This document shows, piece after piece, positions 4,631 through 58,292 of a stretch of 64,000 nt of DNA. Origin of the DNA: Candidatus Falkowbacteria bacterium RIFOXYD12_FULL_34_57 (GTDB lineage Bacteria > Patescibacteriota > Patescibacteriia > Patescibacteriales > UBA12075); assembly GCA_001780285.1 (NCBI GenBank), contig MFGN01000001.1, positions 22-64,021 of the forward strand, read 5' to 3'. The first letter of the stretch is position 1. Each line of letters begins with the position of its first letter. Position numbers and translations under genes: made by a program. A model generated the notes under the pieces. The model was not told where the DNA came from. It saw only the letters and a list, made by a program, of their open reading frames with translations, and searched no databases.

Positions 4631-6556
4631 TTATTTTTTATCGTCCTTTTTTTCTTCAAACTCTGCATCAACGGTTCCATCTTTTTTTTCTTTTTTGGCT
4701 TCACTATTTGCAGCCTGATCTGCCCCAGGTTCTCCGGCTTGTGATCCCGCCTGTGCTTGCTGCTGATACATAGCCGTACCAATCTTCTGCGCGATCTCGT
4801 TCATAGCCTCCATCTTAGCCTTGATATCTTCGGTGTTGCCGGAATCTTTTATCTTCTTTAAATCTTCTAATTTTTCTTCCAACTCTTTTTTATCTTCTGT
4901 CTTCATTTTATCTCCCGATTCTTTTATTAATTTTTCTGTGGTAAAGATAACGGTATCGGCCTGATTTTTAATTTCTATTCCCTCTTTCTTCTTTTTATCT
5001 TCGTCAGCGTGCATTTCCGCATCTTTTTTCATTTTTTCCACCTCCGCCTCTGAAAGTCCGGAAGAAGCTGTAATTGTAATCTTTTGCTCTTTTCCCGATG
5101 CCATGTCCTTAGCGGAAACATTTAAAATACCGTTAGCATCAATATCAAACTTTACTTCAATTTGCGGAATACCTCTTGGTGCCGGTGGGAGTCCGTCAAG
5201 CATAAACCTTCCCAATGTTTTGTTATCCGCAGCCATAGATCTTTCACCTTGTAATACATGAATTTCTACTCCCGGCTGATTATCTGCTGCTGTAGAAAAT
5301 ATTTGGGTTTTAGAGGTTGGAATAGTGGTATTTCTTTCAATTAACGGAGTGGATACGCCGCCCAGTGTTTCTATTCCAAGCGTCAGCGGAGTTACATCAA
5401 GCAATAAAACATCCTTTACATCCCCCTGCAAGACACCCGCCTGGACCGCTGCTCCGTTCGCAACCACCTCATCAGGATTTACCCCTAAATGCGGTTCTTT
5501 ATTAAAAAATTCTTTTACTATTTTTTGAACCATGGGCATTCTGGTCATACCTCCAACTAAAATAACCTCTTCCAGATCACCAACAGAAAGCCCTGCATCT
5601 TTTAGGGCAGCACGACACGGAGTTAATGTTTTTTCAACCAAATAACCAACCAATTCCTCAAGTTTTGATCTGGTTAATTTTATCACTAAGTGTTTTGGTC
5701 CATTTTCATCAGTAGTTATAAAAGGTTGATTAATTTCTGTTTCTCCGGATGTGGATAGTTCAATTTTGGCTTTTTCGGCTGCTTCTTTTATTCTTTGCAA
5801 AGCCAGGGAGTCTTTAGACAAATCAATCCCTTGATCTTTCTTGAATTCATCAATAATCCATTTAATAATCACTTGATCAAAATCTTCACCGCCCAAATGA
5901 GTATCTCCATTTGTTGATTTTACCTCTACTGTATCTTCTGAAACATCTAAAATTGACACATCAAAAGTTCCGCCGCCAAGATCATAAACTGCAATTTGCT
6001 GGCCCTTCTTTTTTTCAAAACCATAAGCAAGCGCTGCAGCAGTCGGTTCATTGATAATTCTCTTTACATCAAGTCCGGCAATCTTACCGGCATCTTTGGT
6101 TGCCTGACGCTGAGCATCATTAAAATAAGCCGGAACGGTAATTACTGCTTCTGTTATTTTTTCTCCAATCTTTGCTTCAGCATCTGCTTTTAATTTAGAG
6201 AGTATCATAGCCGAAACCTCTTGCGGACTATACTCCTTATCATTCATTTTTACCCCCACACTATCACCGATCTTCACAATGTCAAAGGGAACTGTTTTTA
6301 TATCCCCCTGAACTTCCGCATCATCATATTTTCTCCCAATTAGACGCTTTACGGCAAAAACCGTATTCTTTGGATTGGTCACCGCCTGTCTTTTTGCGGC
6401 TTGACCAACTAATCTTTCACCACTTTTAGAAATGGCTACAACAGAAGGAGTTGTTCTGTTTCCCTCTGCATTTTCTAATATTTTTGGCTGACCACCCTCA
6501 ATAATCGCCATAGCGCAATTTGTGGTTCCCAAATCTATTCCTAATATTTTTCCCAT
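4631..6556 (-). CDS. dnaK: molecular chaperone DnaK (Hsp70)
   Basis: Full-length Hsp70 with [17 protein letters not shown] and [11 protein letters not shown] signatures and an acidic/Lys-rich tail. Confidence 0.98.
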
Positions 6557-6571
6557 ATTTTTATAATATTA

Positions 6572-6600
6572 ATTTTAAAATATTAACATGCTAATGTTAA
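6572..6600 (-). promoter_or_regulatory. dnaK promoter (TTAACA-N17-TAAAAT) overlapped by palindrome TTAACAT-N4-ATGTTAA (6583-6600)
   Basis: On the sense strand the sequence is TTAACATTAGCATGTTAATATTTTAAAAT. The -35 element and most of the spacer lie inside the palindrome. Confidence 0.5.
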
Positions 6601-6612
6601 TTTATTAATTTG

Positions 6613-7548
6613 TTAATTTGTTAATTGCATTGATTCTACTACCTCTATAAAATCATTTAATGGCAACATGCCGAAATCCGAATTTATAAAAGATAGGCCT
6701 CTGCATATTTCACTATTTAAATTTATTAATGCTCCTACATTTTCACCAATATCCACCATTAAATCCTCTTCATTCGTGCTTGTGACAAAGCTTTTTTTAT
6801 CCACCAACAGGGCTTTTCCTTTTTCAAAATTAATTATTTTGGCGGGATTCAATTTATAGTCTTTACTATCTTTCCCTTGTGCGAAAAAATAATAACCCTT
6901 GTCATCCTCTAAAAACCCCTGGGAATCTAAAAAAGATAATTTCTGCACATTTTCATTTTCCGGCAACTCCCTGCTAACACAGCCAAAAGAAAATTTATCG
7001 TTTTCCAAAAATTCACCGCGAACAATCTTGCCATCCCCCTTTTCGGTTATTTGCACATTAACCTTGCCAAAACGAGCCGGATACTCAAAAGATAATCCAA
7101 GCATCGAGTCCGTAAATTTGAGTTTAGCCGACTCTATCAATTCAGCTTTTTTCTTTAATTCTTCATTTTCGGTTAAAAGGCTGGATTTTTCAGTCTCAAT
7201 GCCGTCTATTTTATCTTTTAAATTAGAAATACGAGCCTCAAAATCTATTCTGGTTTGCCTGGCGCTATTTTGAATTTTTTCCACGCTTGTATTGGTATAT
7301 TTTTTCTGCCAAGCATAAATAACGCTTCCCACCACCACAGCCGTAATTACCACAACAATAAAAGTAAATAATGGGCTTGTTTGCCTCTCGGGCTTCCTAG
7401 TGGAGGTCTTTTTCTCTGCCGCGGGCGCGGGCGCGCTGCTTAAAGAAGTTTTTTTTCTTAAAACCTTCTTAACTTTTTTTAGAGGCGGATTCCCAGAAGA
7501 GATGCCGCCACCTTCATTGCTAACGCTTATTTTTAATTCATTTGCCAT
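6613..7548 (-). CDS. hypothetical membrane-anchored protein (basic N-terminus, 1 TM, coiled coil, globular C-domain)
   Basis: TM segment LFTFIVVVITAVVVGSVIYAW followed by a heptad-rich region. It lies between hsp20 and dnaK on the same strand. Confidence 0.6.
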   Translation of the reverse strand: MANELKISVSNEGGGISSGNPPLKKVKKVLRKKTSLSSAPAPAAEKKTSTRKPERQTSPLFTFIVVVITAVVVGSVIYAWQKKYTNTSVEKIQNSARQTRIDFEARISNLKDKIDGIETEKSSLLTENEELKKKAELIESAKLKFTDSMLGLSFEYPARFGKVNVQITEKGDGKIVRGEFLENDKFSFGCVSRELPENENVQKLSFLDSQGFLEDDKGYYFFAQGKDSKDYKLNPAKIINFEKGKALLVDKKSFVTSTNEEDLMVDIGENVGALINLNSEICRGLSFINSDFGMLPLNDFIEVVESMQLTN

Positions 7549-7693
7549 AATTTGTTGATAATTAATTCAAAATATTCAATAACCAATATTCAATATTCAT
7601 TGAGTCTGTCGCCAAACTTTCATAAAACTTTCAATGCTTAACCTCAAAATTAAACATTAAATGAATATTGAAATATTGAATATTGGATATTTT

Positions 7694-8125
7694 TTATTTT
7701 TTTTTAGTTTTAATCTTTATAGTTTTCGGTTTTGTCTCTATGGCTTTGGGGATGGATATTTTCAAAACCCCGTCTTCAGCTACAGCAGATGCTTTTTCCC
7801 CCACCACATGCGCCGGAAGCGGAATATTTCTATAAAAACTTCCACGCCTTATTTCTTTTTTATAATAATTTTTTTCTTCTACTTCGCTCTTTTTTTCACT
7901 TTCCCCCTTAATGCAAAGAACATCATTCTCAATAGAAATATCAACCTTATCCGGATCAATTCCGGCGAGCTGCGTTTCTACGATTACATTATCCTTATCT
8001 TCATACATATCAATAGCCGGCATAAAACCTAAGTTATTGCGCATGGTTGGCGCTAATTCGGAAAAAATTTTGTCCACATCTTCAAATGAATCAAAGAATG
8101 GGGACCACTTAATTAGTGATGTCAT
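7694..8125 (-). CDS. Hsp20/alpha-crystallin small heat-shock protein
   Basis: Alpha-crystallin domain pattern (PAIDMYEDKDNVIVETQLAGIDPDKVDISIENDVLCIKGE, AEDGVLKISIPK). An AAGGGGGA SD is present. Confidence 0.9.
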   Translation of the reverse strand: MTSLIKWSPFFDSFEDVDKIFSELAPTMRNNLGFMPAIDMYEDKDNVIVETQLAGIDPDKVDISIENDVLCIKGESEKKSEVEEKNYYKKEIRRGSFYRNIPLPAHVVGEKASAVAEDGVLKISIPKAIETKPKTIKIKTKKK

Positions 8126-8239
8126 GCTTTTCCCCCTTTGACCGCGTGTTTTGTAAAAATTTCACAAAATCCACACAATCAAAAAATTAATTATTATAAA
8201 ATTTAAAATTACTTAATACTTTTAATTAAATACTATATA

Positions 8240-9103
8240 CTAACCTACTACCACCCTAGCTGGAATTATTACCTTACCCCTTAATTTATAACCGGGCTTT
8301 ACTTCTTTTATAACCACTTCTTTTTTCTCTTCTTTTTCTTCAATTTTCTTGTCATGATTTTCTTCTTTCCTGTTATTATCTTCAACGGCTTCCATGGTGT
8401 GGATATCAAATTTTTCGCCCATAGTTTTAATTTCCTCCACCCCCTCTTTTTCCAAAATATCTTTGAATTGTTTTAAAACATATTTTACCCCCTCAAACCA
8501 AGGATCGGTTATATTATTATTGTTGTGTTCTACAGATATCTTTAAATTTTCATAAACCGGTAAAATTTCTAGCAAAATTTGTTCATTACTGTATTTTATA
8601 AACTCCATCCTTTCTTCCGTGCTCCGTTTTACTAAATTTTGATAATCAGCCAGAGCGCGCTTATATCTGTGTTCAAAACTTTCGTTGTCCAATAAATATT
8701 TTTCTATAATCTCTCTGGTGAATTCTCCCAAATCTTTTTGCAGCCATTCTTCAGGTTTTAACCATCTATACTTAACCCCCTCATCACTCAACTTTATTTT
8801 ATCTGTTTTTCTTGCCCTGGCCTTATAATTTAAAAATATTAAATGCTTTTGATCTTTTTTATATTTCTCACCTAATTTCAAGCCCTCTGAAACACCCATA
8901 AATTCAATATTCTCAATTTTCATGTTTGTTTCTTCTCTAATTTCTCTTTCCACAGCATCCTTAATTTTTTCACCATATTCAATTTTTCCCCCCGGTACTG
9001 TATACTTATTTTCCCAACAAGGAGCCTTCATTAAAAATAGTTCATCTTTATCATTAAAAATAAAAACACCAACTACGACTCTGGGATATTTTTTTTCACT
9101 CAT
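8240..9103 (-). CDS. grpE: NUDIX hydrolase domain fused to nucleotide exchange factor GrpE
   Basis: Residues 1-140 carry a Nudix box (GGKIEYGEKIKDAVEREIREETNM). Residues about 141-287 carry GrpE motifs (YKRALADYQNLVKR, LLEILPVYENL, GEKFDIHTMEAV, GYKLRGKVIIPARVVV). Confidence 0.85.
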   Translation of the reverse strand: MSEKKYPRVVVGVFIFNDKDELFLMKAPCWENKYTVPGGKIEYGEKIKDAVEREIREETNMKIENIEFMGVSEGLKLGEKYKKDQKHLIFLNYKARARKTDKIKLSDEGVKYRWLKPEEWLQKDLGEFTREIIEKYLLDNESFEHRYKRALADYQNLVKRSTEERMEFIKYSNEQILLEILPVYENLKISVEHNNNNITDPWFEGVKYVLKQFKDILEKEGVEEIKTMGEKFDIHTMEAVEDNNRKEENHDKKIEEKEEKKEVVIKEVKPGYKLRGKVIIPARVVVG

Positions 9104-14901: not shown

Positions 14902-16572
14902 TTAAATCTCATCTTTCCTCTCCCTAACATATTTAGTCCATTCTTCAGCTACTGTTATAAATATCTTAAAAGGGGCTTCAATGATGACATCCATTATAAA
15001 AACAAAGACATTTATTTTGGAAAATTTTTCAGAAAGCCATTTTCCTGCTTCAATAATCGGAACATAAAAAAAGTCTATTAAGAGGGTTAAAAATTTTTCC
15101 TTAGATTCTAAAACCATTAATTCACGCGCTCCCTTGCGAATACGAATACTGAAAAAACTAACAAAGGCCAAAAAGAATAAAAATATCACCATACTTACCC
15201 AGCTAAAATTTATTTTGTCTAATGCCCAAATTATGGCACCAAAAGATAAAAAGAAGGTCACAGCATAAATTAAACCAAAAATAGTATGAAGCACAGCACT
15301 TCTTTTGGCTGGTTTGCGAAGTTTATGCTTTATTTCTTCTTGTTTTTCTAAAAATATCACACCTTCTATTCCACTCACCACCTTAACGGAATTATCATCT
15401 GATGGAAATTTTGTAAAAAGTACAACAAAAAACAAAAGAATGGCCGGAAAGGCAATGTTAATTAAAAGAGAGAAAGCATTCAATTCTTCTCCAAGCCATT
15501 TATTAGCCGGCACCTCCAGGGCAATCGCGAAAACCGATTTAGTAATAAAAATATAAATGATACTCCTGATAGCCGCTCTCCATAATTTTTTCCTAACTTC
15601 TCCATACTTTTTCTTGCAAACCTTTTTTATGGATCTATCCAGGGCCTTTGGATCATTTTTAAAACTGGTATATACATCTTCTGGGTTTTCCTCTATGGCA
15701 TCAACAAGCATGGAAAAGAAAACAGTATAACGACTAATAATACGATTTAACTGTCCAGCTAATGGATGATTAATTTGTTCTTGAATTTTATCTTTTAAGT
15801 CTATAATATTTTTTGCCACACTCTCTACAGCTCTTTCATCACACCCGCTCCAGCCGCGATTATAATATTTAAAAAGAATGTGACTCATCATACCTTGGTC
15901 AAATTTCAAAAAATTTCTATAAATACCGATAAATATCTGAATCTTTCGATCATCTTCATATGGTGAATTTTTTGGTAAAGTAATGCCGCCAGCCAAAAGC
16001 TCAAACATGTAATCAACCACCGTTAAGTCCACTCTGCTTCTTCCTAAATTTTCTTCTATATCACTGGCAAGAAGTGCAATAATCCATTTAACAATTTCAT
16101 TTTTTTCGTTAATTTTTAAATCCTTAAATTCTATTAAAAAATATTTCTTTAAAATTAAATATTTATTAATTATTTTACTAATTTCATTAATCTTGGATTC
16201 CGGTATTTTATTATTCGGTAAATATGCAGCGCTGATTAATTCAGTAATCAGGTGCTTAGATATTTCGGGAATATTTAATTCCTTGGATATTACCTCAGTA
16301 ATCTTTCCTTCTATTACAATTTGTCTTCTTAGAATACGTTCAATGGCATTTTTGCGAAGCAGATACTCTTCTTCATAATCAACCATATTGCGAATTTTTT
16401 CATAATAAAAAGACATTTTGGAAACTAGTTCCGAAACTTTAATTTTTGGTATTTCATCATCATCTTTTTCCTCTTGATTCTGTTCGTGATAAATGACCTG
16501 AAAAAGCCTTTTAGCATTTTCAGAAAGAGTGAGTGACTGATTTGATTTTCTTGAAAGAGTGGGGCTGGGCAT
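14902..16572 (-). CDS. hypothetical multi-pass membrane protein (about 330-aa soluble N-domain + about 6 TM)
   Basis: Long intact ORF with hydrophobic segments from residue about 335 onward. No motif I can assign. Confidence 0.7.
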   Translation of the reverse strand: MPSPTLSRKSNQSLTLSENAKRLFQVIYHEQNQEEKDDDEIPKIKVSELVSKMSFYYEKIRNMVDYEEEYLLRKNAIERILRRQIVIEGKITEVISKELNIPEISKHLITELISAAYLPNNKIPESKINEISKIINKYLILKKYFLIEFKDLKINEKNEIVKWIIALLASDIEENLGRSRVDLTVVDYMFELLAGGITLPKNSPYEDDRKIQIFIGIYRNFLKFDQGMMSHILFKYYNRGWSGCDERAVESVAKNIIDLKDKIQEQINHPLAGQLNRIISRYTVFFSMLVDAIEENPEDVYTSFKNDPKALDRSIKKVCKKKYGEVRKKLWRAAIRSIIYIFITKSVFAIALEVPANKWLGEELNAFSLLINIAFPAILLFFVVLFTKFPSDDNSVKVVSGIEGVIFLEKQEEIKHKLRKPAKRSAVLHTIFGLIYAVTFFLSFGAIIWALDKINFSWVSMVIFLFFLAFVSFFSIRIRKGARELMVLESKEKFLTLLIDFFYVPIIEAGKWLSEKFSKINVFVFIMDVIIEAPFKIFITVAEEWTKYVRERKDEI

Positions 16573-22052: not shown

Positions 22053-24128
22053 TTATGAATTACGAGACTTCACTCCTATTAACCATTTTTTGTTTTCCAT
22101 CCAGCTGCCGCTCAAAATCTGTAAAAATGTCTTTGTTACTATAATTGCCGAAAACATAGAAATACAAACCCCCAAAAACAAAGTAATCGCAAAACCCTTC
22201 ACTATACTAGTAGAAAACCAAATCAAGATAATACAGGTCAGAAGCGTGGAAACATTTCCATCACGGATTGATGGCCATGCCCGATCAAAAGAATCATTAA
22301 TAGCAAGACTTAATGGCTTGCCGTTCTTAAGCTCTTCTTTCAGTCTTTCAAATATCAAAACATTAGCATCAACCGCCATTCCAATTGAAAGAATAAATCC
22401 GGCAAGTCCGGCAAGTGTAAGCGTTACAGAGAATATTTTAAATATTGCGAGCACTAAAATACCATAAATAGTAAGAGATATTACCGCTATTACCCCAGGA
22501 AGGCGATAAAACAAAACCATAAATAAGGCTACAAGCAGAAGACCCAACAACCCCGCCTTGAGAGATTCGGCCATTGAAGCTTTTCCCAAAGTAGCACCGA
22601 CAGTCTGTTGATTTATAAGTTCAATTGGTACCGGAAGCGCCCCAGCATTCAATCTTTGTGCTAACAGTTTTGCCTCTTTAATGTTAAAACTGCCGGAAAT
22701 TACAGCTCGGCCCCCAGTTATTTTACTGTTTACCGTCGGTATGCTGATTGGATAATTGTCTAAAAATATTGCTACCGGCTTGCCCACATTTCTCTCTGTA
22801 ATTTCTGCAAACATATCTGCTCCCTCTGAATCAAACTCCAAACCAACTTCCGGATTATTGGTGTTTGGATCAAATTGAACCAAGGCACGATCCAGATTCT
22901 TTCCTGTAAGCTCTGTATTCTCCCAATCTTTTTCATCGCCAATAATATCCTTTTCAGTTATTGTCCTAAGGAAAATATGACTAATATTGTATTCTTCTAT
23001 ATCTCTTTCTTCTTGTTTATATATCAAATGATATCCAAATTCGGTTTCTACTATATCAGAAATTGTTCCGTTTCCTTGATTAAAAACAGCATCAGAAAAG
23101 GGCTTTACCATAGAAGCTCTATCAAACCAACCCAAATCTCCCCCACTTGGTCCGCTTGGACCGGTAGAATTTTCCCGAGCCAACTTGGCAAAATTTTGCG
23201 GGTTTGCCTCTGTTTTGAGTTTATTAACCTTTTCCATGGCCTCTTCTTGCGTTAAACCGCTCTCACACGAATCAATTCCTTCATAACAAATTAAAATATG
23301 TGCTGCTTTTATTTCTTTTTCCGTTTCTGCTTCATTGAAGGGGTTGGTTTTCTTTCTTTTTTCGTTAAGCTTGATAATCTCATAACCATTTGATGCTGGT
23401 ACTATATTGTGGGTATATTCACCAGGATTTAAACCCTCTATTTCCTTGATAATATCTGCGTGCTCTTTTTTTGTAATCCATCCAAAATTTCCGCCATTTT
23501 CTTTAGTATTTGTATCATCACTATATTCTTTTGCTAATTCAGCAAAATCGCCACCGGATGATAATTTTTCCAAAATTTCTGCACCCTTTTCATTGGCTTG
23601 TTTGTTTATTTCATTCATCTGCTGTCTTTCCTCTTCTGTTAGTTCGCGCAGTTGTTCTATTTGTTCCTTAAACTCAAGCAATGGAGTCTCTCCAATCATT
23701 TTAATCGCTTCATTCACATCTTTGATTCCGGCAAGTTCGGCAATTACTCGGTACTCTTCTCCGGAAACATTGGTTTGAATATTCGGCTCACTAACTCCAA
23801 ATACATTTACTCTTCGTTCTATTACATCGCGTACCCCCTCCAGGGCGCTGACCTTATCCTTGTCGGCAATATTTGACATATCAGCCTTATAAACCAGGTG
23901 GCTTCCACCCTGTAAATCAAGCCCCAATCTAAAAGGAACTTCTTTTACTTTTGGTAAATTAATAGAGTATCCTGTTTTATTCGCTACCCAAGTCGTTCCT
24001 CGGTTATAATAATCCCCGGCATCAATCAAGCCCCCTATAACTATCAAGATAATTATGAGTAAAAAAATACGCCAAATCTTTCCCCTCTCACTTGGCTGAA
24101 ACAATTTTTGCACTATATTTTCGGACAT
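22053..24128 (-). CDS. secD: protein translocase subunit SecD with two parvulin-like (PpiC) modules inserted in the periplasmic domain
   Basis: SecD motifs GLDLQGGSHLVY, GETPLLEFK, AIFLDNYPISIPTV and a C-terminal 6-TM bundle. The insertion at residues about 155-400 includes AAHILI, GGDLGWF and FGYHLIY. Confidence 0.9.
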   Translation of the reverse strand: MSENIVQKLFQPSERGKIWRIFLLIIILIVIGGLIDAGDYYNRGTTWVANKTGYSINLPKVKEVPFRLGLDLQGGSHLVYKADMSNIADKDKVSALEGVRDVIERRVNVFGVSEPNIQTNVSGEEYRVIAELAGIKDVNEAIKMIGETPLLEFKEQIEQLRELTEEERQQMNEINKQANEKGAEILEKLSSGGDFAELAKEYSDDTNTKENGGNFGWITKKEHADIIKEIEGLNPGEYTHNIVPASNGYEIIKLNEKRKKTNPFNEAETEKEIKAAHILICYEGIDSCESGLTQEEAMEKVNKLKTEANPQNFAKLARENSTGPSGPSGGDLGWFDRASMVKPFSDAVFNQGNGTISDIVETEFGYHLIYKQEERDIEEYNISHIFLRTITEKDIIGDEKDWENTELTGKNLDRALVQFDPNTNNPEVGLEFDSEGADMFAEITERNVGKPVAIFLDNYPISIPTVNSKITGGRAVISGSFNIKEAKLLAQRLNAGALPVPIELINQQTVGATLGKASMAESLKAGLLGLLLVALFMVLFYRLPGVIAVISLTIYGILVLAIFKIFSVTLTLAGLAGFILSIGMAVDANVLIFERLKEELKNGKPLSLAINDSFDRAWPSIRDGNVSTLLTCIILIWFSTSIVKGFAITLFLGVCISMFSAIIVTKTFLQILSGSWMENKKWLIGVKSRNS

Positions 24129-49954: not shown

Positions 49955-50998
49955 CTATTCTATATTTCCGCATTTCTTGCAAAGCGGGAATTTTCTGTTG
50001 TACGCAGCATCTCTTAATTTTTTATTCTTTGCCAAATTCCACATCTTCCTTAAATCCATCTTATCCATTTCTCCGTACACATAATCCCCGTAAAGATCAA
50101 AGCAGCACATTACCGCCCGGCCGTCGGCCAAAACCGTAAAAACCCTTTTTACATCTGCGCATTTTTTATATTCAAGCTTTGGTTTCAGTCCATGCTCATC
50201 TTTTTTGTAAACAATCGCCTCGTCCTCAATATCCTTATCCGCAAAAAACTGTTCTGATAAATTTTGTATTTCTTCTTCGTTATAAGCATATCCGCTTAAG
50301 ATAAAAGGCTTAATATATAATTTGTCTATTTTATTAATTCCGGCAAAATCTTTAATATTCTGCACCTCATCCTGATTCAGCTTGTTTAAAATAAACTGCA
50401 AAGTGGCGATCGGCCTTTTTTTCTTCAGTTCCTGCTTGCGTCGGCAAAAATATTCAATATTCTTTTTTACCGTCTCAAAATTGCCACCGCGCCTGAATTT
50501 TTCAAATGGTTCTTTTTTTAGACTATCCAAAGCAAAACGAATTTCTCCCAATCCGGAGTTGAGTAATTTTTCCGTCATTTTTTCATCCAATAAGGAGCAG
50601 TTAGTAGAAAGCATGGTATGCAAATTATTATCCGACGCGTATTTTGCCATCTCCACGATATCCGGATGTAAAAGCGGCTCATTGGAATTATAAATATAAA
50701 CTATATGCACATAATCCTTTACATTATCAATAATGCGCTTATATTTTTCCAGATTCATATATTCCGGCTGGCGCTTTTGAAAAATCAAGCGGTGAGGAGT
50801 CGGACATGTCGGGCAATTAAAATTACAGGTGTTGGATGTTTCAATGATAACCGCATAAGGCATTTTAAAAACAACATGCTTAAACATAGCCATAAACAGA
50901 TGCCAAACTTTTTTATGCTCCCCATTCCAAAGATTGTACCAAACAAACCACTTAAAAACCTGTAATGTGTATTTAATTTTTTTTATATATTTTTTCAT
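49955..50998 (-). CDS. radical SAM protein with a C-terminal SPASM-like Cys cluster
   Basis: CNFNCPTC (CX3CX2C) and a C-terminal CCFD...CKKCGN. There is an ATGA overlap with the upstream GtrA-GT gene. Confidence 0.85.
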   Translation of the reverse strand: MKKYIKKIKYTLQVFKWFVWYNLWNGEHKKVWHLFMAMFKHVVFKMPYAVIIETSNTCNFNCPTCPTPHRLIFQKRQPEYMNLEKYKRIIDNVKDYVHIVYIYNSNEPLLHPDIVEMAKYASDNNLHTMLSTNCSLLDEKMTEKLLNSGLGEIRFALDSLKKEPFEKFRRGGNFETVKKNIEYFCRRKQELKKKRPIATLQFILNKLNQDEVQNIKDFAGINKIDKLYIKPFILSGYAYNEEEIQNLSEQFFADKDIEDEAIVYKKDEHGLKPKLEYKKCADVKRVFTVLADGRAVMCCFDLYGDYVYGEMDKMDLRKMWNLAKNKKLRDAAYNRKFPLCKKCGNIE

Positions 50999-52665
50999 AT
51001 TAATGAATCAAAGACTTGTAAATGCGCATCTATAATCTTTTCTTTTTCCCAAAAAATATTACTCATCACATCATTGTCGGCTAAATTATCGTTTTTATTT
51101 GCCAAGAAATATTCAATAGCTTTTTCTATTTTCTTTTTCATGTCATCAACGCTCAGAGGATCGATATAAAAAATCTTATCGCTTTTAATGCCCAGATATC
51201 CCAACTCGCTTTCCTTGGTGTGGATTATGACCTTGCCCATCTTCAGGCCCTCGGCAATAAAATTGGAATTGATTTCAGTCAGCGACGGCAGCACCAAAAT
51301 ATCGCTTTCTATAATTTTTTTCATTAAGTCCCCGTGCTTCATGGGGCCGAATATTTTTATTCTTTTTTCCAGCTTATTGAATTTAATATATTTTTTTATT
51401 TCTCTTTCTTCCGGCCCCCCTCCTATCATTTCCAAAACTATATTCTGATGGTATTTCTTATAATCAATTTCGGCAAAAGATTCCACGAAATTTTTCAAAT
51501 TGCGGATTTTTATCATTCTGCCGGCAAAAACAAGTTTTATTTTATTTTTATCTTTATTGATTGCGCAAATATTCGTAAAATCCGGCTCTATATTTTTTAT
51601 TATTACTGTCTTGTTTTTATGAATAAGCCTGCGGCTGTTTAAATAAATATCTCGCAAAAATTGGGAATTAAAAATTATTTTATTGCTTTTAAGCAAAACA
51701 AAATTATTAATACTATAAATTATTTTTTCCCATAAATTAAAATTTTTTTTATTGTAATATTCCCGTAAGGTGCTGTCGGCATAGCCTTTCTGCGAGGCTT
51801 GTTCCCACTGATAATCTCCGCCTAATCTGGTTACCAATCTCAATTTAGGATTTAATAATTTAACCAAGGCGCACGGAAAACCTGTACTTATAGCATCAAA
51901 ACTATAAACGATATCAGCCTTTGAACTTAAAAAAAACATTTTCCAAAAATATTTTATATAGCGCAATAACAAGTTTTGATGTTTAGCTACGGTATAAATT
52001 TTAAATTCCGAATTATCAATCTTCTTGCCATATGTCAATATTTTCACATTATATCCGTTATCAGCAAATTCCCTGGCAAAAGAACTGGCATAGGTGGCCG
52101 GCCCGCTGATATCGGGCGGGAAGCTTCCCGCGGCCATAACAATCTTAAAGCTCTTATCAGATGTTTTTCTGAATTTTCTGCATTTTCTGAAAATAATAAA
52201 TTTATAAATCAAGAAACTACCAACCCCCAGCATGCCCGCAATGAATCCTTGGACAAAAACATACCAAATTTTATATTTATCTATCAAAGATATTAAAGGG
52301 TGCAACAATCTGCTTTGGCTAAAAATATTTTTAACTATTGGCCAGGTATCGTATTTTTCTATTAATAAATAAATCAAGCCGGCATTAATGCTTAAGTTAA
52401 TAAGCCCGACTATTAAATACAAAATCATTTGCCCGCTCATTCTTTCTTTGTCGTTATCGCTGAATGTCCAGAATTTCTGCAGGCAAAAACTCACAAAAAA
52501 AGCTATGGCATAAGCGATAGTAGCGGATAATACCACGTTAACCAATAAAACGCTGTGGAGGAAATAAATACAAAAAAAGTCCACTCCGGCGGCGGTCATT
52601 CCGGAAATTATGAACTTAATCGGAGTTTTATGTTTTTGAAATTGACAATAAATCAACTGAACCAT
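50995..52665 (-). CDS. GtrA-like 4-TM domain fused to a GT-B glycosyltransferase
   Basis: N-terminal FIISGMTAAGVDFFCIYFL and further TM segments. A GT-B starts at FKIVMAAGSFPPDISGPATYA and ends with LPSLTEINSNFIAEGLKMGKVII. Confidence 0.8.
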   Translation of the reverse strand: MVQLIYCQFQKHKTPIKFIISGMTAAGVDFFCIYFLHSVLLVNVVLSATIAYAIAFFVSFCLQKFWTFSDNDKERMSGQMILYLIVGLINLSINAGLIYLLIEKYDTWPIVKNIFSQSRLLHPLISLIDKYKIWYVFVQGFIAGMLGVGSFLIYKFIIFRKCRKFRKTSDKSFKIVMAAGSFPPDISGPATYASSFAREFADNGYNVKILTYGKKIDNSEFKIYTVAKHQNLLLRYIKYFWKMFFLSSKADIVYSFDAISTGFPCALVKLLNPKLRLVTRLGGDYQWEQASQKGYADSTLREYYNKKNFNLWEKIIYSINNFVLLKSNKIIFNSQFLRDIYLNSRRLIHKNKTVIIKNIEPDFTNICAINKDKNKIKLVFAGRMIKIRNLKNFVESFAEIDYKKYHQNIVLEMIGGGPEEREIKKYIKFNKLEKRIKIFGPMKHGDLMKKIIESDILVLPSLTEINSNFIAEGLKMGKVIIHTKESELGYLGIKSDKIFYIDPLSVDDMKKKIEKAIEYFLANKNDNLADNDVMSNIFWEKEKIIDAHLQVFDSLI

Positions 52666-52720: not shown

Positions 52721-53818
52721 TTATCCTTCATAAATATTTTCAATATCTTTTATAATTTTGTTCCAATCAAATCTTTTAACAGATTCTTTGGCATTTTTCA
52801 CAAGTTTATTTCGTAGATCGGTATCTTTAAGAAGTTTAATAAGCGCCCCGGCAATTTGTTCGGAATTTTTCGGCTCAATCAACAATCCTGTTTTCTGATC
52901 ATCTATAACTTCTGGTATCCCCCCTACATTTGTACCAATAATTGGTCTGCCGCATAATTGAGCTTCAATAAACGCAATTCCCAGCCCCTCGGCCAATGAA
53001 GGACATATAACCACTTCTGATTTTTTGAACTCTTTCATATATTCATCATGAGGAATGGTAAGTTTAAGCTCTACTGAATCCTCTATATTTAAATCCTTAA
53101 TAATTTTAAAAGCCTCTTCCCTCATGTCGCCGTCACCAACCTGAACCAATTTAGCTCCGGGTATTTCCTTAAGCACCAATGGCCAGGCTTGCAACATATA
53201 ATAAGCGCCCTTTTCCCGTGATAACCTACCGGCAAAAAATACTCTATTTGATATAGATTTTACTTCGGATGGAATATTAGAAAAATCTGCTCCATTTGGA
53301 ATAACTTTAATCTTATCCGGATCAGTGCCTAAATCTACAGAACATTTTTTTAAAAACCTGCTAATAGCCGTTATTACATGCGGTGATTTGTGAATGGTTT
53401 TCATTATAAATTTAAACAAAAAATTATCCATTTTTTCCGATGTATATAAATCACCTGATTGCAAAGTTAAAATTCTTTTGGCTTGCGGATACAAATATTT
53501 TAAGATCACCAGAACAGCTCCGGCATAACTCTCCATTATTGCATGTATAATATCCGGTTTAATAGATTGGGCTTTAAAAGCTGCCAAAACTGGATATAAA
53601 AATTTATCAATTTTTTTATGCCCAATACCCAAACGAATTATTTTAAAATTTTTTCGTTCTTCTATAAAAGGTAAATTTTCATCAAAACGACCGGTTAACA
53701 AAACAGTTTCATAATTACTTCCCAATCTTTCTAACACCTCCCTAACCATTTGTTCTGCTCCGCTCATATACGGCTCGTAAAAAGCAGATAATACGACTAA
53801 CTTTTTATTTTTAGACAT
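52721..53818 (-). CDS. glycosyltransferase family 4 (GT-B)
   Basis: Contains EGLGIAFIEAQLCGRPIIGTNVGGIPEVI. Confidence 0.9.
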   Translation of the reverse strand: MSKNKKLVVLSAFYEPYMSGAEQMVREVLERLGSNYETVLLTGRFDENLPFIEERKNFKIIRLGIGHKKIDKFLYPVLAAFKAQSIKPDIIHAIMESYAGAVLVILKYLYPQAKRILTLQSGDLYTSEKMDNFLFKFIMKTIHKSPHVITAISRFLKKCSVDLGTDPDKIKVIPNGADFSNIPSEVKSISNRVFFAGRLSREKGAYYMLQAWPLVLKEIPGAKLVQVGDGDMREEAFKIIKDLNIEDSVELKLTIPHDEYMKEFKKSEVVICPSLAEGLGIAFIEAQLCGRPIIGTNVGGIPEVIDDQKTGLLIEPKNSEQIAGALIKLLKDTDLRNKLVKNAKESVKRFDWNKIIKDIENIYEG

Positions 53819-53857: not shown

Positions 53858-55420
53858 CTATAGCGGCCTGGCCAATTTTCCCTCCTGTTTATCCAGTAAT
53901 TTAGAATATTCTTTTTTAATTCTCTTGGCCATATCTTCATCATATTCCATAACCTCCATGCCGGACTTGCTGTGCAAGGCAACGGCGCTATCGCTTTTAG
54001 CATCATTGGTTAAATATACAGAATCAGCTGTTTTAAAAATCAATTTATAAATCGGCATATAAATGCTTCTATGCAAAAAACCTTTTTTCTGCGCTTCGGT
54101 CTTGTCGAAAGTAAGAAGAAAATTTATCCGTTTATTTAAAAACTTTAAAAATACAGCCGCCAAGCCTCCATAACTAGCCATCACAGACCAGGCAAAACGA
54201 AAATTATATTTTGTGCTCAGCTGATACGCCCTCCATGCGCCGATAAAAGGAAATAAATATTTTCCAATGATACCGGAAGGACCCACTCGATAAATAAGAG
54301 AGTTGCCTAATTGTTTAATATTTTCTAGTCCTTTTCTGGATCTAGTAGTAATAATATAAAATTCTGTATCAGACATATTATTTATCATCTCCATCATTGC
54401 GTTCTCCGCCGGACCCATATCGGGATAATAAGTTGTCGCAAAAACAATAATCTTCTTTTCCGGCATCTCCAAATTTTTATAGTGTTCTATGGTCTTTTTA
54501 ACCCCCTCTTCCAAACCAACCTTAGGCTCCCAATCTAAGACCCTCTTAGCTAAGCCAATATCCGGCTTGCGAAATTTAGGATCTCCTGTAAGCTCCTTAT
54601 CATAAACGATGCGTGATTTAGAGTTGGTCATCTTAATTACAATATCAGCTAACTCTTTTATGGTTATTTCCTTAGTGCTACCAACATTGACGGGACCCGT
54701 AAATTCAAAAGATTTTTTCATCATCCTGTCTACCGCTTCTACTAAATCATCAACATACATATGAGACCTAGTAAAAGAACCGTCTCCATATATAATAAGG
54801 TTATTACCATTCAAGGCCGCAATAATAAAATTGCTCATTACCCGGCCATCGCGATAATACATATTTGGTCCGTAAGTATTAAAAATCCTTACAATCTTAA
54901 CATTCACATTGTATTTTCGGTGGTAATCCATGCACAGTGTTTCTGCCATTCTTTTTCCTTCTTCATAACAAGCTCTGGCGGTAAGCGTGTCAACTTGACC
55001 CAGCATATCTTCCCGCATTACTTCCCCCTTTTCCCGTACCCCATAAACATCGGAGGATGAAGCTTGAATAAATACTGCATCATGCTTGCGCGCTATTTCC
55101 AACATATTAATTACGCCATGCACATTAGATTTGGCGGTATGAATCGGATCCACCTGCAGATCAACGCAGGAGACCGGACAGGCAAAATTCATCACCCAAT
55201 CAATCTTTTCTTTGAATTCTATAGGATTATTAATGTCATGCTTGATGAATTTGAAATTTTTGTTTTTCTCAAAAGGATCAATATTATCCGTAGTTCTGCT
55301 TTTTTGCAAATTATCAATACAAATCACCTTGTGCCCCTCGCCCAGATACCGCTTGCATAAATGCGATCCGACAAATCCGGCTCCTCCGGTAATTAAAATT
55401 GTTTTTTTGTCTTTTGACAT
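53858..55420 (-). CDS. UDP-glucuronate decarboxylase (UXS-type SDR) fused to a GT4 N-terminal-half-like domain
   Basis: TGGAGFVGSHL, ACYEEGKRMAE (YxxxK) and RIFNTYGP. C-terminal residues about 321-520 are paralogous to the N-terminal half of the downstream GT4. Start moved to MSKDKK at 55420. Confidence 0.85.
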   Translation of the reverse strand: MSKDKKTILITGGAGFVGSHLCKRYLGEGHKVICIDNLQKSRTTDNIDPFEKNKNFKFIKHDINNPIEFKEKIDWVMNFACPVSCVDLQVDPIHTAKSNVHGVINMLEIARKHDAVFIQASSSDVYGVREKGEVMREDMLGQVDTLTARACYEEGKRMAETLCMDYHRKYNVNVKIVRIFNTYGPNMYYRDGRVMSNFIIAALNGNNLIIYGDGSFTRSHMYVDDLVEAVDRMMKKSFEFTGPVNVGSTKEITIKELADIVIKMTNSKSRIVYDKELTGDPKFRKPDIGLAKRVLDWEPKVGLEEGVKKTIEHYKNLEMPEKKIIVFATTYYPDMGPAENAMMEMINNMSDTEFYIITTRSRKGLENIKQLGNSLIYRVGPSGIIGKYLFPFIGAWRAYQLSTKYNFRFAWSVMASYGGLAAVFLKFLNKRINFLLTFDKTEAQKKGFLHRSIYMPIYKLIFKTADSVYLTNDAKSDSAVALHSKSGMEVMEYDEDMAKRIKKEYSKLLDKQEGKLARPL

Positions 55421-55440
55421 AATTATATATTCAAAAATTT

Positions 55441-56415
55441 TTATATTTTGTAATAATCTTGATACCACTCCACAAATCTTTTTATCCCCTCTTCTACCGT
55501 AACTTGCGGCTTATATCCAAGCATTTTCTCCGCCTTGGAAATATCCGCCGAACTTACCGGCACATCTCCGGGTTGCATCGGCATCATGTTCTTTTTTGCC
55601 CTTTTGCCCAAATTTTTTTCAATCTCAGCGATATAATCCAATAATTTCACCGACCTGCCGCCGGCTAAATTAAATATTTCATAAGAATGCTCCTCGCTTC
55701 TATTGATTGCGGACACCACCCCGTCTACGATATCCGATACATAAGTAAAATCTCTGGCCATATTGCCATAATTGAAAACATTAATCGGTTTATCCCTGGC
55801 AATAGCATCGGTAAATAAAAATAAAGCCATATCCGGCCGGCCCCATGGCCCGTAAACCGTAAAAAACCTAAGTCCCGTGCATCTCAAACCGAACAAATTA
55901 TGATAAACGAAAGCTTTTTCCTCGTTGCCTTTTTTGGTCGCCGCATACAGAGACATCGGCGCATCCACCTTGTCATCTTCCGAAAAAGGCATTTTTTTAT
56001 TAGCCCCGTAAACAGAGCTGGAAGAAGCAAAAACAAAATCTTTGATATCATGATGCCGGCACAGCTCCAACATATTCAAAGTGCCAAGATAATTAGAGTG
56101 CTGATAAGCAAAGGGATTAGTAAGCGAATACCGCACTCCGGCTTGCGCCGCTAAATGTAATATCTTGTCTATCTTTTCTGTTTTAAAAATTTTATCCATT
56201 TCCTCGTAATTCGTAATATCTGTTTCAAAAATATAAAAATTATTAAAATCTTTCTCTAAATTTTTTATCCTATCTCTTTTTATCCGCGGATCATAATAAT
56301 TATTAAAATTATCAACAATCAATATTCTATCTCCCCGATTAAGTAAAACACGAGCTACACTAGATCCGACAAATCCGGCCCCTCCGGTAATCAAAATTGT
56401 TTGATTAACTTTCAT
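55441..56415 (-). CDS. NAD-dependent nucleotide-sugar epimerase (UDP-glucuronate 4-epimerase-like)
   Basis: Motifs TGGAGFVGS, DNFNNYYDP and YAATKKGNE. Confidence 0.88.
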   Translation of the reverse strand: MKVNQTILITGGAGFVGSSVARVLLNRGDRILIVDNFNNYYDPRIKRDRIKNLEKDFNNFYIFETDITNYEEMDKIFKTEKIDKILHLAAQAGVRYSLTNPFAYQHSNYLGTLNMLELCRHHDIKDFVFASSSSVYGANKKMPFSEDDKVDAPMSLYAATKKGNEEKAFVYHNLFGLRCTGLRFFTVYGPWGRPDMALFLFTDAIARDKPINVFNYGNMARDFTYVSDIVDGVVSAINRSEEHSYEIFNLAGGRSVKLLDYIAEIEKNLGKRAKKNMMPMQPGDVPVSSADISKAEKMLGYKPQVTVEEGIKRFVEWYQDYYKI

Positions 56416-57178: not shown

Positions 57179-58114
57179 CTAGTTGTCTCTATATTTATTA
57201 ATCATATCTTCCCCATAAACCCCCATAAGCAAATCAAGATCCTTTTCACTTCTCACAAGCAAATGAATATTTTTATCCCGCAATGCTTCCAAAACCCGAA
57301 GCCCATATTCATTGGCAACATCCCTCTCGTACATTTCATGAAAAGCTGCAAAATCCTTGATAAAACAATGCCCACCGGCTCCTCTTCCGGATTTATGTAT
57401 CGGCTCCATGTGCAAGTCATTAAATTTCAATGTCTGGGCGACATGGCCGCCAGGCTGTCCGCTATTGTGTACCGGATTCATATGGGTAGAACCGATCCGC
57501 GGATCCGCAGCCATGGCCTCTTTGATAATATCCCACTCTAAATCATGGGCGCGGGTCAAATCATAAAGCATGTTAAAAAATATCACCTTAAAATAAAACC
57601 AATTATTGCCGCCATACTTGATAAATTCCGCTTCTTTAGCCCTGCAAATTTTTTCATAAGGGGCTTTCGGCAAACAATCCAATACTTCCTGCGCCCTGCT
57701 TATATATTCATCTGTTTCCAGCGGAATACCGATTATATTTCTAATCGGATTGGCTGCGTCATGAGCTGCTGTAGCTTCACTTAAAAATTCAGGGGCATGC
57801 AAAACAAAAAAACGAGGATTTTCCCTCTGAATAGATTCGGTGGTGCCGGGTAAGACAGTAGATTTAATTACGACAGTAGCATCGTCTCCGGCTATTTGTA
57901 TTGATTTTCTGATAAAACTGTCATCAAAACCCTTGGGCGTAGAAGGCGTAGGCACAGCCACAAAAACAATTCTACAATCCCTGATTAATTCTTTATTTTG
58001 TATATAAGGCTCCTCAAGTGAAAACCTTACTACATCATGCCCCCTGTTTTCAAAGTCATCGGCATAATTTTTGCCGATCCAACCTTGACCAATAAAACCA
58101 ATTTTTTTGCTCAT
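57179..58114 (-). CDS. UDP-glucose/GDP-mannose dehydrogenase-family protein, short form
   Basis: N-terminal Rossmann IGFIGQGWIG and the catalytic-Cys motif GGHCFIKD. At about 311 aa it appears to lack the usual C-terminal UDP-binding domain. Start moved to 58114. Confidence 0.65.
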   Translation of the reverse strand: MSKKIGFIGQGWIGKNYADDFENRGHDVVRFSLEEPYIQNKELIRDCRIVFVAVPTPSTPKGFDDSFIRKSIQIAGDDATVVIKSTVLPGTTESIQRENPRFFVLHAPEFLSEATAAHDAANPIRNIIGIPLETDEYISRAQEVLDCLPKAPYEKICRAKEAEFIKYGGNNWFYFKVIFFNMLYDLTRAHDLEWDIIKEAMAADPRIGSTHMNPVHNSGQPGGHVAQTLKFNDLHMEPIHKSGRGAGGHCFIKDFAAFHEMYERDVANEYGLRVLEALRDKNIHLLVRSEKDLDLLMGVYGEDMINKYRDN

Positions 58115-58292
58115 AAAATTTAAAATCTCCAAGCCCCGCACTTGGATATCAAGAATTAGTATACCTTCAATAGTATACTATTAATTATTAAATAAAAAAA
58201 ATTTAAAGTCAAGATAAATTACAACACAAAACAATAATAAATTGCAAATATATCCCCTACTTTTTCCTAGCTTAACGGAAGAAAAAAATATA

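Follow-up and report, generated by a model that had tools for sequence, protein, structure and literature searches.

The gene at 53858..55420 of the window (the whole 64-kb stretch of DNA that was analysed), from a groundwater member of the Patescibacteria (Falkowbacteria), raises the question of what half a glycosyltransferase may do at the end of a sugar-nucleotide decarboxylase. It lies in a single ORF, unbroken on the minus strand from 53858 to 55468. Translation from ATG 55420 gives 520 aa, in line with the gene call made for the source contig, and NCBI lists a 536-aa version starting at GTG 55468; the lengths of the orthologues (514-523 aa) favour ATG 55420 as the start. About six residues link the last helix of an SDR domain to strand 1 of a half-domain derived from a GT4 glycosyltransferase, and the protein ends about 200 aa past this junction. 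The earlier note had placed the half-domain at 53861-54460, corresponding to residues 321-520. In databases, the protein is labelled either "hypothetical protein" or "UDP-glucuronate decarboxylase". A full-length AF2 model, built from a 7-sequence alignment, reached a mean pLDDT of 58.6 and was too poor for a fold search or for domain packing. The gene and its two domains are:

53858..55420, minus strand: whole fusion gene, 520 aa plus stop codon
54467..55420, minus strand: UXS-type extended SDR domain, residues 1-318, assigned by Pfam, by the match to human UXS1 and by its motifs
53861..54466, minus strand: GT4-derived half-domain, residues 319-520, comprising the N-terminal GT-B Rossmann domain, a terminal helix and a basic tail

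The SDR domain was recognised by PF16363 (E 3e-52) and PF01370 (E 9e-51) over residues 9-310. Its best solved relatives are the structures of human UDP-glucuronate decarboxylase/UXS1 (4gll and 2b69), which align end to end with residues 1-316 (E ~1e-78; 9e-79 for the best), and the next non-UXS SDR structure scores far weaker (E 3e-36). The NAD-binding GxxGxxG motif (TGGAGFVGSH), the catalytic residues S122, Y152 and K156, the segments S-S-S-D-V-Y-G and Y152-E-E-G-K156 (Tyr-x3-Lys in UXS1), and DPKFRKPD, the counterpart of DP..R.PD in the human enzyme, are all present. Besides the additional 200-aa GT4-derived domain, two substitutions distinguish this protein from human UXS1: the canonical S-T-S-E reads S-S-S-D (Glu to Asp), and the catalytic Tyr is followed by Glu where Asp is canonical. 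Both swaps co-occur in six orthologues, a state seen in the loci L002 and L025-L028; most orthologues retain S-T-S-E and Y-D-E-G-K. The claim of a complete UXS-like SDR at residues ~1-320 thus held for its extent, but the active site is not fully canonical. The Glu of S-T-S-E is the UXS active-site acid, according to the literature on hUXS1, and because it is Asp here, the product is uncertain. The SDR domain probably makes a UDP-pentose from UDP-GlcA, with UDP-xylose as the likeliest product. In one genome (L006), a stand-alone UXS adjoins the fusion, and therefore the fusion is not required merely for the supply of UDP-xylose.

Of the Pfam families foreseen in the earlier note, PF01370 and PF16363 were found on the SDR domain, but the half-domain had no Pfam or NCBIfam match, with nothing past residue 310 in the Pfam scan; at E <= 10, Pfam gave only a chance-level hit to DUF5872 and no Alg14 (PF08660) signal. 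BLASTP matched the half-domain with the GT4 encoded by the next gene (52721-53818; residues 5-144; E 2e-11, 28% identity over 144 aa), and among the ORFs of the window only the fusion and this GT4 match this type of N-domain. With the half-domain as profile, a search of 1.84 billion representatives retrieved 741 proteins (E <= 1e-3). Most of these are full-length GT4 enzymes (PF13439 and PF00534) whose N-domain is the part aligned, at E values as low as 1e-40. Similarly, hhalign against full GT4 relatives aligned positions 3-181 of the half-domain with positions 6-205 of the GT4 (E 3.8e-47). The AF2 model of the half-domain (pLDDT 88.5) contains one Rossmann domain only, and its top Foldseek matches were the GT4 structures BshA, MshA, SPS and PimB', which identifies the C-terminal domain as having the GT-B N-domain fold and not a non-GT fold. 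The closest full-length relatives belong to the GT4 subtype with the motifs GGAE...LTLQEGD (mean identity 29-32%, versus 24% for the neighbouring GT4 of the window). The proposed paralogy with the N-half of the next gene's product was borne out, although that product is not of the closest subtype. Neither the donor-binding C-domain PF00534 (Pfam) nor E-x7-E (motif search) occurs in residues 319-520, in agreement with the claim that the EX7E-bearing C-terminal half is missing. A word-indexed protein search yielded only six homologues, all contig-end fragments; the family was seen through the exhaustive profile search and a genome scan.

Within the half-domain, three elements stand out:

54404..54415, minus strand: G-P-A-E loop, residues 336-339, joining strand 1 to helix 1 and corresponding to GGAE in the catalytic relatives
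53885..53938, minus strand: terminal helix, residues 495-512 (AF2 helix, model residues 180-197, block pLDDT 86-88)
53861..53890, minus strand: basic C-terminal tail KQEGKLARPL, with the clade-1 signature K-Q-E-x-K-L-x-R-P

The half-domain shares a homologous N-terminal Rossmann domain, the same fold and a basic charge with GT4 enzymes (BshA, MshA, SPS, PimB' and the GGAE...LTLQEGD subfamily), but it lacks their C-terminal donor-binding domain, EX7E, the GG of the Gly-rich loop (GP instead), QEGD and PNGVD. Indeed, the second Gly of the GGAE or SGAE of the catalytic relatives is replaced by Pro, invariantly in clade 1; clades 1 and 2 have GPAE in this loop, whereas clade 3 has G-[PL]-AE. Both LTLQEGD and IS..L..PNGVD are lost in all three fusion clades, the loss of QEGD taking a different form in each. 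Because it is without any donor-binding domain and has lost key motifs of the cleft, the half-domain is not expected to transfer sugar alone. Other cleft-facing motifs are still kept, namely the E of GPAE, R-x-G-x-G...DK-x-LLP and W-x-x-MASYG, and the conserved positions that half-domains share with catalytic relatives lie on the face lining the GT-B cleft, where strands 1, 4, 5 and 6 have their C-terminal ends. The half-domain is strongly basic (median pI 9.7, net charge +10), as are the N-domains of the catalytic relatives, whereas the SDR domain has values of 6.7 and -1. About 40 positions of the half-domain are invariant, the clade-specific C-terminal tail included; this tail is present in the orthologues, and its K, Q, E, K, L, R and P are invariant in A1 and A2.

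The terminal helix is predicted (AF2) to pack on the Rossmann domain. The best whole-target structural fit of the half-domain was 6ldq (TMt 0.71-0.75, 200 aligned columns), an engineered SPS N-domain with its crossover helix. The helix may be either the GT-B crossover helix, having survived an internal deletion, or a recruited segment that follows PNGVD collinearly. The fit to 6ldq is consistent with the former; the profile alignment, however, runs collinearly as far as the PNGVD linker, with no significant second alignment to the C-terminal helix of GT4. The structure 6ldq is that of the TeSPS A-domain (residues 27-220 and 406-426), and because this engineered construct was crystallised (PMC7264703), a GT4 N-domain with one terminal helix can fold on its own. 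Both are thus GT4 N-domains plus one terminal helix in a self-contained fold, the TeSPS construct being man-made and unfused whereas the half-domain is natural.

The surroundings of the fusion gene contain further genes for sugar-nucleotide conversion and glycosyl transfer:

52721..53818, minus strand: complete GT4 glycosyltransferase, 365 aa (PF13439 and PF00534), 39 bp downstream of the fusion
50995..52665, minus strand: GtrA-type transmembrane domain fused to GT4, 556 aa (PF04138 and PF00534)
55441..56415, minus strand: upstream extended SDR, GalE/TviC-like, 324 aa (Pfam, NCBIfam)
57179..58141, minus strand: short UDP-glucose-dehydrogenase-like gene (PF03721 and PF00984)

The complete GT4 is a paralogue of the half-domain and likely its partner. 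The GtrA-GT4 protein is the membrane-embedded member of the operon, and its relatives follow in many loci. The upstream SDR is likely a UDP-sugar 4-epimerase, with UDP-GlcA as its putative substrate. The dehydrogenase-like protein carries a GGHCFIKD motif with the catalytic Cys that aligns to UGDH structures and is without the C-terminal domain; its gene recurs in related loci, and it presumably supplies UDP-GlcA to the SDR domain. In about 25 of 38 loci, the fusion is followed downstream, on its own strand, by a GT4 of the same subfamily, which in 12 loci starts -4 to +60 bp from the stop codon of the fusion; a recognisable GT4 directly downstream is missing in about a third of loci. Furthermore, SDR, half-domain and full GT4 are joined in one chain in two cases, P0010 (876 aa) and an ORF of locus L034 (869 aa, without Ns, on a 1.3-Mb Uhrbacteria contig). 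Two other long ORFs, of 1023 aa (L036) and 903 aa (L017), were rejected as new fusions, their runs of N having been read as X.

The distribution of the architecture, which the earlier note had left to a survey, covers about 38 of the 41 genome loci, each with the same ORF of ~520 aa for SDR and half-domain, in about 38 Patescibacteria species genomes of many classes; all six database homologues have it as well. In clade 3, the half-domain is fused to a different type of SDR ('YAGSSTKF'). The half-domain was never found trimmed off, even in these small genomes. Its dN roughly equals that of the SDR domain (0.077 versus 0.111; 0.082 versus 0.061), and dN/dS was ~0.04 where computable, which was for two ratios, as dS was saturated in nearly all pairs. 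Because synonymous sites are saturated, the argument for selection rests on the similar dN of both domains; on this comparison, the half-domain is under purifying selection. Support in the neighbour-joining trees is weak, both for one common origin of the half-domains as a whole (35% bootstrap) and for P0067, a 705-aa fusion of SDR and full GT4, as their sister (19% bootstrap).

The reading that we favour, with a probability of roughly 0.5, is that the half-domain is a non-catalytic module that docks onto the membrane, an acceptor or a GT4, placing the decarboxylase at a GT4 assembly line. Its ancestor would be the Rossmann domain on the acceptor side, at the N-terminus, of a Patescibacteria GT4. 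UDP-GlcA from the dehydrogenase-like enzyme of the cluster would be converted by the SDR domain into a UDP-pentose, most probably UDP-xylose, while the folded basic half-domain may hold the decarboxylase against the inner face of the membrane and bind it to the adjoining GT4. In this way, the nucleotide sugar would arise where the GT4 assembly line consumes it; we infer the docking or membrane binding and the adjoining GT4 as partner, as well as the product and any channelling. A membrane- or anionic-ligand-binding character is suggested because the half-domain is basic and the operon includes the GtrA-type transmembrane GT4. The proposal in the earlier note of scaffolding or channelling with a neighbouring glycosyltransferase gains comparative support from the synteny with GT4 genes, the two Rosetta-stone chains and the purifying selection.

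A different function, which we consider rather unlikely, is that of a ligand-sensing regulatory domain, whose retained acceptor pocket would bind the acceptor or a pathway intermediate and tune the decarboxylase allosterically. Indeed, the retained cleft motifs could point to a ligand-binding or regulatory role rather than to simple docking, and the conservation of the cleft-lining face and the very short linker to the SDR domain fit allosteric coupling. Moreover, the half-domain is joined to two SDR types, and therefore a general SDR-coupled role is suggested. Yet the subfamily-specific QEGD has been lost, and differently in each clade, and the synteny and triple fusions indicate a protein partner.

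That the half-domain is a vestige of an ancestral fusion of SDR and full GT4, kept only for folding or solubility of the SDR, is unlikely. Fusions of that kind exist, as P0067 demonstrates, with its weakly supported place beside the half-domains in the best tree, and the catalytic motifs are degraded as in a remnant; but a remnant agrees poorly with conservation over many Patescibacteria classes at the amino-acid rate of the SDR domain, with the invariant positions and the clade-specific tail, and with the absence of any trimming in small genomes.

It is decidedly unlikely that the half-domain forms a second active site in trans, whether its partner were the C-domain of the GT4 next to it or a donor-binding half from a separate gene. 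The precedent invoked in the earlier note is Alg13/Alg14, a GT-B enzyme split in halves with Alg14 as the membrane-side recruiter. Split GT-B enzymes are thus established, and the half-domain is an intact GT-B N-domain under selection that keeps some cleft residues; as in Alg14, a GT-B N-half is encoded without its C-half. However, Alg13/Alg14 and their bacterial split homologues are GT1/GT28-like and not GT4, and the half-domain has neither an Alg14 profile match nor a TM anchor and is joined to an SDR. No ORF with a GT4 C-domain only was found in the 64-kb window, and none recurs near the orthologues (41 loci). With the Gly-rich loop mutated to GP and QEGD gone, the precedent lacks support. 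In addition, for TeSPS, the one GT4 tested in this respect, mixing of the separately expressed halves did not restore activity (PMC7264703).

A composite site, in which the half-domain would be more than an anchor, is very unlikely. In such a site, the retained acceptor-side cleft, held against the UDP-sugar-binding SDR domain by the six-residue linker, would stand in for the partner of a GT-B donor domain, and the new UDP-pentose (or a 4-keto intermediate) would pass directly to the adjoining GT4 or to an acceptor. Glycosyl transfer built or gated in this way, by combining half of a GT-B enzyme with an SDR, would have no precedent. Finally, an artefact that joined two genes through a frameshift, a chimeric assembly or a missed stop codon can be practically dismissed, with nothing found in its favour. 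The ORF is continuous, and 12 contigs carry the same protein sequence. The junction (...PEKK-ILVF-TTYYP-GPAE) runs collinearly through independent assemblies that come from many studies, and because about 38 genomes share both this junction and the stop codon, a frameshift or an error of assembly is refuted, so that the junction read from the window is genuine.

Among other systems, ArnA likewise fuses a UDP-GlcA-decarboxylating SDR with another domain that serves the same glycan pathway, but in reversed order and with a catalytic formyltransferase of unrelated fold as partner. Indeed, the NCBIfam ArnA model matches the SDR part only (profile positions 313-648, E 3e-22, 78.6 bits versus a cut-off of 777), and the SDR begins at residue 6 of the fusion, with no formyltransferase domain preceding it. 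In the accessory Sec system, GtfB is a catalytically dead GT-B paralogue beside the active GT4 GtfA, and joint action of the two has been proposed; GtfB differs in keeping both Rossmann domains and in having no sugar-nucleotide enzyme fused to it.

The fusion is genuine and has been conserved across the phylum, and its architecture is undescribed; no description of an SDR joined to half a GT4 was found in the open-access literature, an absence that is no proof. The two domains of GT-B glycosyltransferases are usually regarded as inseparable, with the Alg13/Alg14 split as the known exception. The present family, of about 500 aa and with a second domain that standard domain libraries miss, provides a natural single-domain derivative of GT4 that is under strong selection phylum-wide, always joined to an SDR and usually located beside a GT4. 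If the half-domain is a docking or acceptor-binding module, it would be a natural, stable 'acceptor half' for studies of acceptor and membrane recognition by GT4 enzymes, and it would show how genome-reduced Patescibacteria organise the synthesis of their surface glycans, with the supply of sugar nucleotides coupled to membrane transferases.

A single uninterrupted frame encodes the fusion protein, in which a UXS-type (UDP-xylose synthase or UDP-glucuronate decarboxylase) extended SDR (residues 1-318) is followed by a half-domain (residues 319-520).

53858-55420, minus strand: fusion ORF, uninterrupted, with its stop at 53858 and its start at ATG 55420 or at GTG 55468

The ATG start gives a protein of 520 amino acids, in agreement with the gene call on a public contig bearing the identical protein, a Rifle-aquifer scaffold, and with the lengths of the orthologues (514-523 amino acids). 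This protein is recorded at NCBI as a 'hypothetical protein' of Candidatus Falkowbacteria bacterium RIFOXYB2_FULL_34_18 (OGF28058.1) and carries the UniRef label 'UDP-glucuronate decarboxylase'. In a word-indexed search, the end of the SDR domain directly preceded the half-domain in six of six homologues, all of them contig-end fragments, and the junction was collinear across homologues ('...P-[ED]-K-K-[IV]-[IL]-V-F-x-T-T-Y-x-P-x-x-G-P-A-E'). Furthermore, a scan in which a single genome stood for each GTDB species recovered 41 loci, nearly all from MAGs of Patescibacteria by record title (Falkow-, Lloyd-, Azam-, Kaiser- and Uhrbacteria, Paceibacterota and Parcubacteria). In about 38 of these, the match sat within an SDR-plus-half ORF, typically of 514-523 amino acids and closed by a basic tail (K-Q-E-x-K-L-x-R-P). 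A frameshift or mis-assembly, a danger raised in the earlier note, is ruled out by the occurrence of the same junction and architecture in independent homologues and these approximately 38 loci. Five loci (L005, L017, L023, L025 and L027) are titled 'uncultured Gammaproteobacteria', yet possess the Patescibacteria-type fusion and gene order, and several further loci bear 'Saccharibacteria' titles; the taxonomic labels of such third-party assemblies look unreliable. Two giant ORFs (L036, 5499-8570, 1023 amino acids; L017, 1078-3789, 903 amino acids) were rejected as masked N-runs translated as X, which would pass as novel fusions under automatic ORF calling.

The N-terminal domain belongs, by homology, to the UXS branch of the extended SDRs, as the earlier note had proposed, with one defining residue being atypical. 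Indeed, PF16363 and PF01370 matched residues 9-310 (E about 1e-51), and the best solved relatives were human UDP-glucuronate decarboxylase structures (E about 1e-78, residues 1-316), which led other solved relatives by 40 orders of magnitude. Most orthologues contain the canonical UXS motifs S-T-S-E-[IV]-Y-G, C-Y-D-E-G-K-R and T-R-S-F-Q-Y; S-S-[SA]-D and C-Y-E-[EK]-G-K-R occur instead in the window, in its closest relative L002 and in L025-L028.

54950-55060, minus strand: SDR active-site motif swap, also found in L002 and L025-L028

The Glu-to-Asp change was always paired with an Asp-to-Glu change beside the catalytic Tyr. The pair looks like a compensated swap in a predicted active enzyme and may signal that product or specificity has altered. 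Locus L006 harbours a stand-alone canonical UXS of 310 amino acids (5978-6910, plus strand) immediately upstream of the fusion (7059-8618, plus strand) in the same operon, and therefore the fusion is not simply the only source of UDP-xylose in that cell.

Residues 320-520 gave no Pfam or NCBIfam match, even when scanned alone at E <= 10, and this Pfam scan gave no homology to Alg14 either. The paralogy to the next gene product noticed from the sequence was borne out by BLASTP, as residues 321-520 matched the N-terminal half of this 365-amino-acid GT4 (52721-53818; E 2e-11, 28% over 144 residues); the other three GT4 genes of the window gave no match. Neither a PF00534 domain nor an E-x7-E motif was present, in line with the C-terminal half that had been reported missing. 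The window domain was combined with six homologues into a profile, which retrieved 741 proteins at E <= 1e-3 from 1.84 billion representative proteins. The non-fusion matches fell into two length classes (about 375-400 and about 720-770 amino acids), both aligning through the initial 180 or so residues at E values as low as 1e-40, and Pfam identified them as GT4 enzymes, either single (PF13439 plus PF00534) or in tandem (GT4-GT4). When a profile of 36 half-domains was compared with one of 61 full-length relatives having a single GT4 (probability 100%, E 3.8e-47), half-domain positions 3-181 aligned with GT4 positions 6-205, which span the entire N-domain as far as the PNGVD linker. For residues 316-520, a confident AlphaFold2 model (45-sequence alignment, mean pLDDT 88.5, pTM 0.86) predicted a seven-stranded Rossmann-type alpha/beta fold followed by a long terminal helix. 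A non-GT fold, the other way in which the proposal could have failed, was not found, as the best 19 Foldseek matches in the PDB were all GT4 enzymes (BshA, MshA, sucrose-phosphate synthase, PimB' and BA1558). As judged from these comparisons, the C-terminal domain is derived from a GT4.

The best whole-target structural fit was 6ldq (TMt 0.71-0.75, about 200 aligned columns), an engineered construct pairing the sucrose-phosphate-synthase N-domain (27-220) with the C-terminal crossover helix of that enzyme (406-426), which is reported to fold and crystallise alone (PMC7264703). The half-domain therefore appears to be the natural counterpart of this construct, with a single helix capping a GT-B N-domain. 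This helix may be the original crossover helix, left behind by an internal deletion, or may correspond to the collinear stretch that follows PNGVD; the profile-profile alignment was collinear and gave no second significant alignment to the GT4 C-terminal helix.

Group consensus sequences revealed which motifs were lost and kept. After strand 1, catalytic relatives have P-x-x-G-G-A-E (or S-G-A-E) and the fused halves G-P-A-E; after strand 6, the L-T-L-Q-E-G-D of the catalytic relatives has its QEGD degraded in the fused halves, differently per clade. The I-S-x-x-L...P-N-G-V-D segment leading into the C-domain, and all beyond it, are absent from the fused halves. As two defining features of GT4 enzymes are thus missing, the half-domain should not be called a glycosyltransferase. 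The G-loop Glu, R-x-G-x-G...D-K-x-L-L-P and W-x-x-M-A-S-Y-G were kept and map, in the AlphaFold2 model, to the C-terminal ends of strands 1, 4 and 5; given the Rossmann topology, this face would line the interdomain cleft as in GT-B enzymes. In every orthologue the half-domain had a strongly basic character (median pI 9.7, net charge +10), compared with a median pI of 6.7 and a net charge of -1 for the SDR domain, and the N-domains of catalytic relatives had a pI of 9.7-9.9. Such a charge usually marks the N-domains of peripheral-membrane GT-B enzymes (PimA, WaaG and MurG, for example), by which anionic lipids or lipid-linked acceptors are bound.

Selection on both domains was compared in the closest pairs, in which synonymous sites were saturated (dS >= 1.6 or not computable).

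L009/L010: dN 0.077 (half-domain) and 0.111 (SDR); dS 2.1 (half-domain) and 1.6 (SDR)
L025/L027: dN 0.082 (half-domain) and 0.061 (SDR); dS not computable (half-domain) and 2.1 (SDR)

Wherever computable, dN/dS was about 0.03-0.07. The comparable dN values, with dS saturated, argue that the half-domain is constrained as strongly as the catalytic SDR domain.

Three groups of fusions were defined by their C-terminal tails.

Clade 1 (that of the window): UXS-type SDR, tail KQExKLxRP
Clade 2: UXS-type SDR, tail '...ELEILxxRL'
Clade 3: a different extended SDR (YAGSSTKF, Y-x-W-x-K), tail 'GDAFANQIRFAY'

The non-UXS SDR of clade 3 indicates that the half-domain is tied to nucleotide-sugar SDRs generally and not to UXS alone. 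Two clade 3 proteins, P0010 (876 amino acids) and the L034 ORF (6537-9146, plus strand, 869 amino acids; on a 1.3-Mb Uhrbacteria contig without Ns), carry SDR, half-domain and complete GT4 on one chain, the terminal helix of the half-domain being followed by a short linker and the full GT4. In P0067 (705 amino acids), an SDR is joined to a complete GT4. Neighbour-joining trees placed the half-domains in one group (35% bootstrap) with P0067 as sister (19%), the only better-supported nodes being clade 3 (95%) and clades 1+3 (78%); it is plausible that the half-domain arose once, when a fused GT4 lost its C-domain.

The fusion lies in a minus-strand run of a short UDP-glucose dehydrogenase (UGDH)-like gene, NUDIX, a GalE/TviC-like SDR, the fusion, GT4, GtrA-TM-GT4, a radical-SAM/SPASM gene, GT4, polysaccharide deacetylase and methyltransferase. 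One flank holds a divergent GT4 and a Wzy_C-TPR protein, and the other, further off past DnaG and sigma-70, a Bac_transf initiating transferase.

57179-58141, minus strand: UGDH-like gene (about 311-320 amino acids), NAD-binding and central domains, catalytic-Cys motif GGHCFIKD
50995-52665, minus strand: GtrA-type TM domain fused N-terminally to GT4
49955-50998, minus strand: radical-SAM/SPASM protein encoded between GT4 genes within the glycan cluster

The UGDH-like protein stops where the C-terminal UDP-binding domain of canonical UGDH (390-490 amino acids) starts, making it the second enzyme of the operon without one Rossmann domain; short versions (280-360 amino acids) recur in related Patescibacteria clusters. 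The GtrA and GT4 parts are separate genes in L002 and occur in reverse order, GT4 then GtrA, in P0033, a 522-amino-acid relative, and a radical-SAM/SPASM homologue is present in the related L004 cluster. The order fusion-GT4-GT4-GT4, often with a short dehydrogenase, recurs across the 41 loci. In about 25 of the 38 loci with enough sequence, a same-subfamily GT4 is encoded in the same direction no more than about 2.5 kb downstream, starting -4 to +60 bp from the fusion stop in 12 loci. Mean identity to clade 1 half-domains was 24% for the downstream subtype 'SAFYEPYMSGAE' (window, L002, L004, L006, L025 and L027), 29% for 'GGAEVAIKEITDR' (most other genomes) and 32% for additional 'GGAE...LTLQEGD' subfamily members taken from the database. 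Fusions with the Glu/Asp swap mostly have an 'SGAE'-type downstream GT4.

Elsewhere in the window, a SecD-like protein carries an inserted PPIase pair that separates the first P1 segment of SecD from its P1 head, an arrangement that would place a foldase within a translocon accessory subunit. Two further ORFs gave no Pfam match at E <= 1e-5.

22053-24128, minus strand: SecD-like protein (691 amino acids) with two parvulin-type PPIase domains (PF13145, PF00639/PF13616)
14902-16572, minus strand: ORF of 556 amino acids
25303-26424, plus strand: ORF of 373 amino acids

The best-supported reading is that the half-domain is a non-catalytic derivative of the GT4 acceptor side and a putative anchor of the decarboxylase at the membrane and the neighbouring GT4. 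Several features suggest this: the donor domain and the cleft motifs are gone, selection is strong, the charge is basic, the operon links genes that overlap or nearly abut and includes the membrane-embedded GtrA-GT4, and two triple fusions exist. A rival explanation, a ligand-sensing regulatory domain, is favoured by the cleft-face residues that were kept and by the six-residue linker to the SDR. A split enzyme on the Alg13/Alg14 precedent, as invoked in the earlier note, is disfavoured by the GP loop and the missing C-half, as no ORF consisting of a GT4 C-domain only was found in the 64-kb window and none recurred in the 41 loci; moreover, mixing the separate N- and C-domains of sucrose-phosphate synthase (TeSPS) did not restore activity (PMC7264703). 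A vestigial remnant is disfavoured by the conservation of the half-domain.

No description of the SDR-plus-half-GT4 architecture was found in the open-access literature. Alike in concept are the ArnA-type fusions, in which a decarboxylase is joined to another pathway domain, and GtfB, a non-catalytic GT-B partner that keeps both domains. As far as the sampled genomes show, the fusion represents a domain architecture that is conserved, lacks annotation and is specific to Patescibacteria, and it is of moderate interest to glycobiologists and researchers of the CPR cell envelope. As a membrane anchor, the half-domain would tether the decarboxylase to the membrane and the adjoining GT4, and UDP-pentose would then be made at the site of its use.
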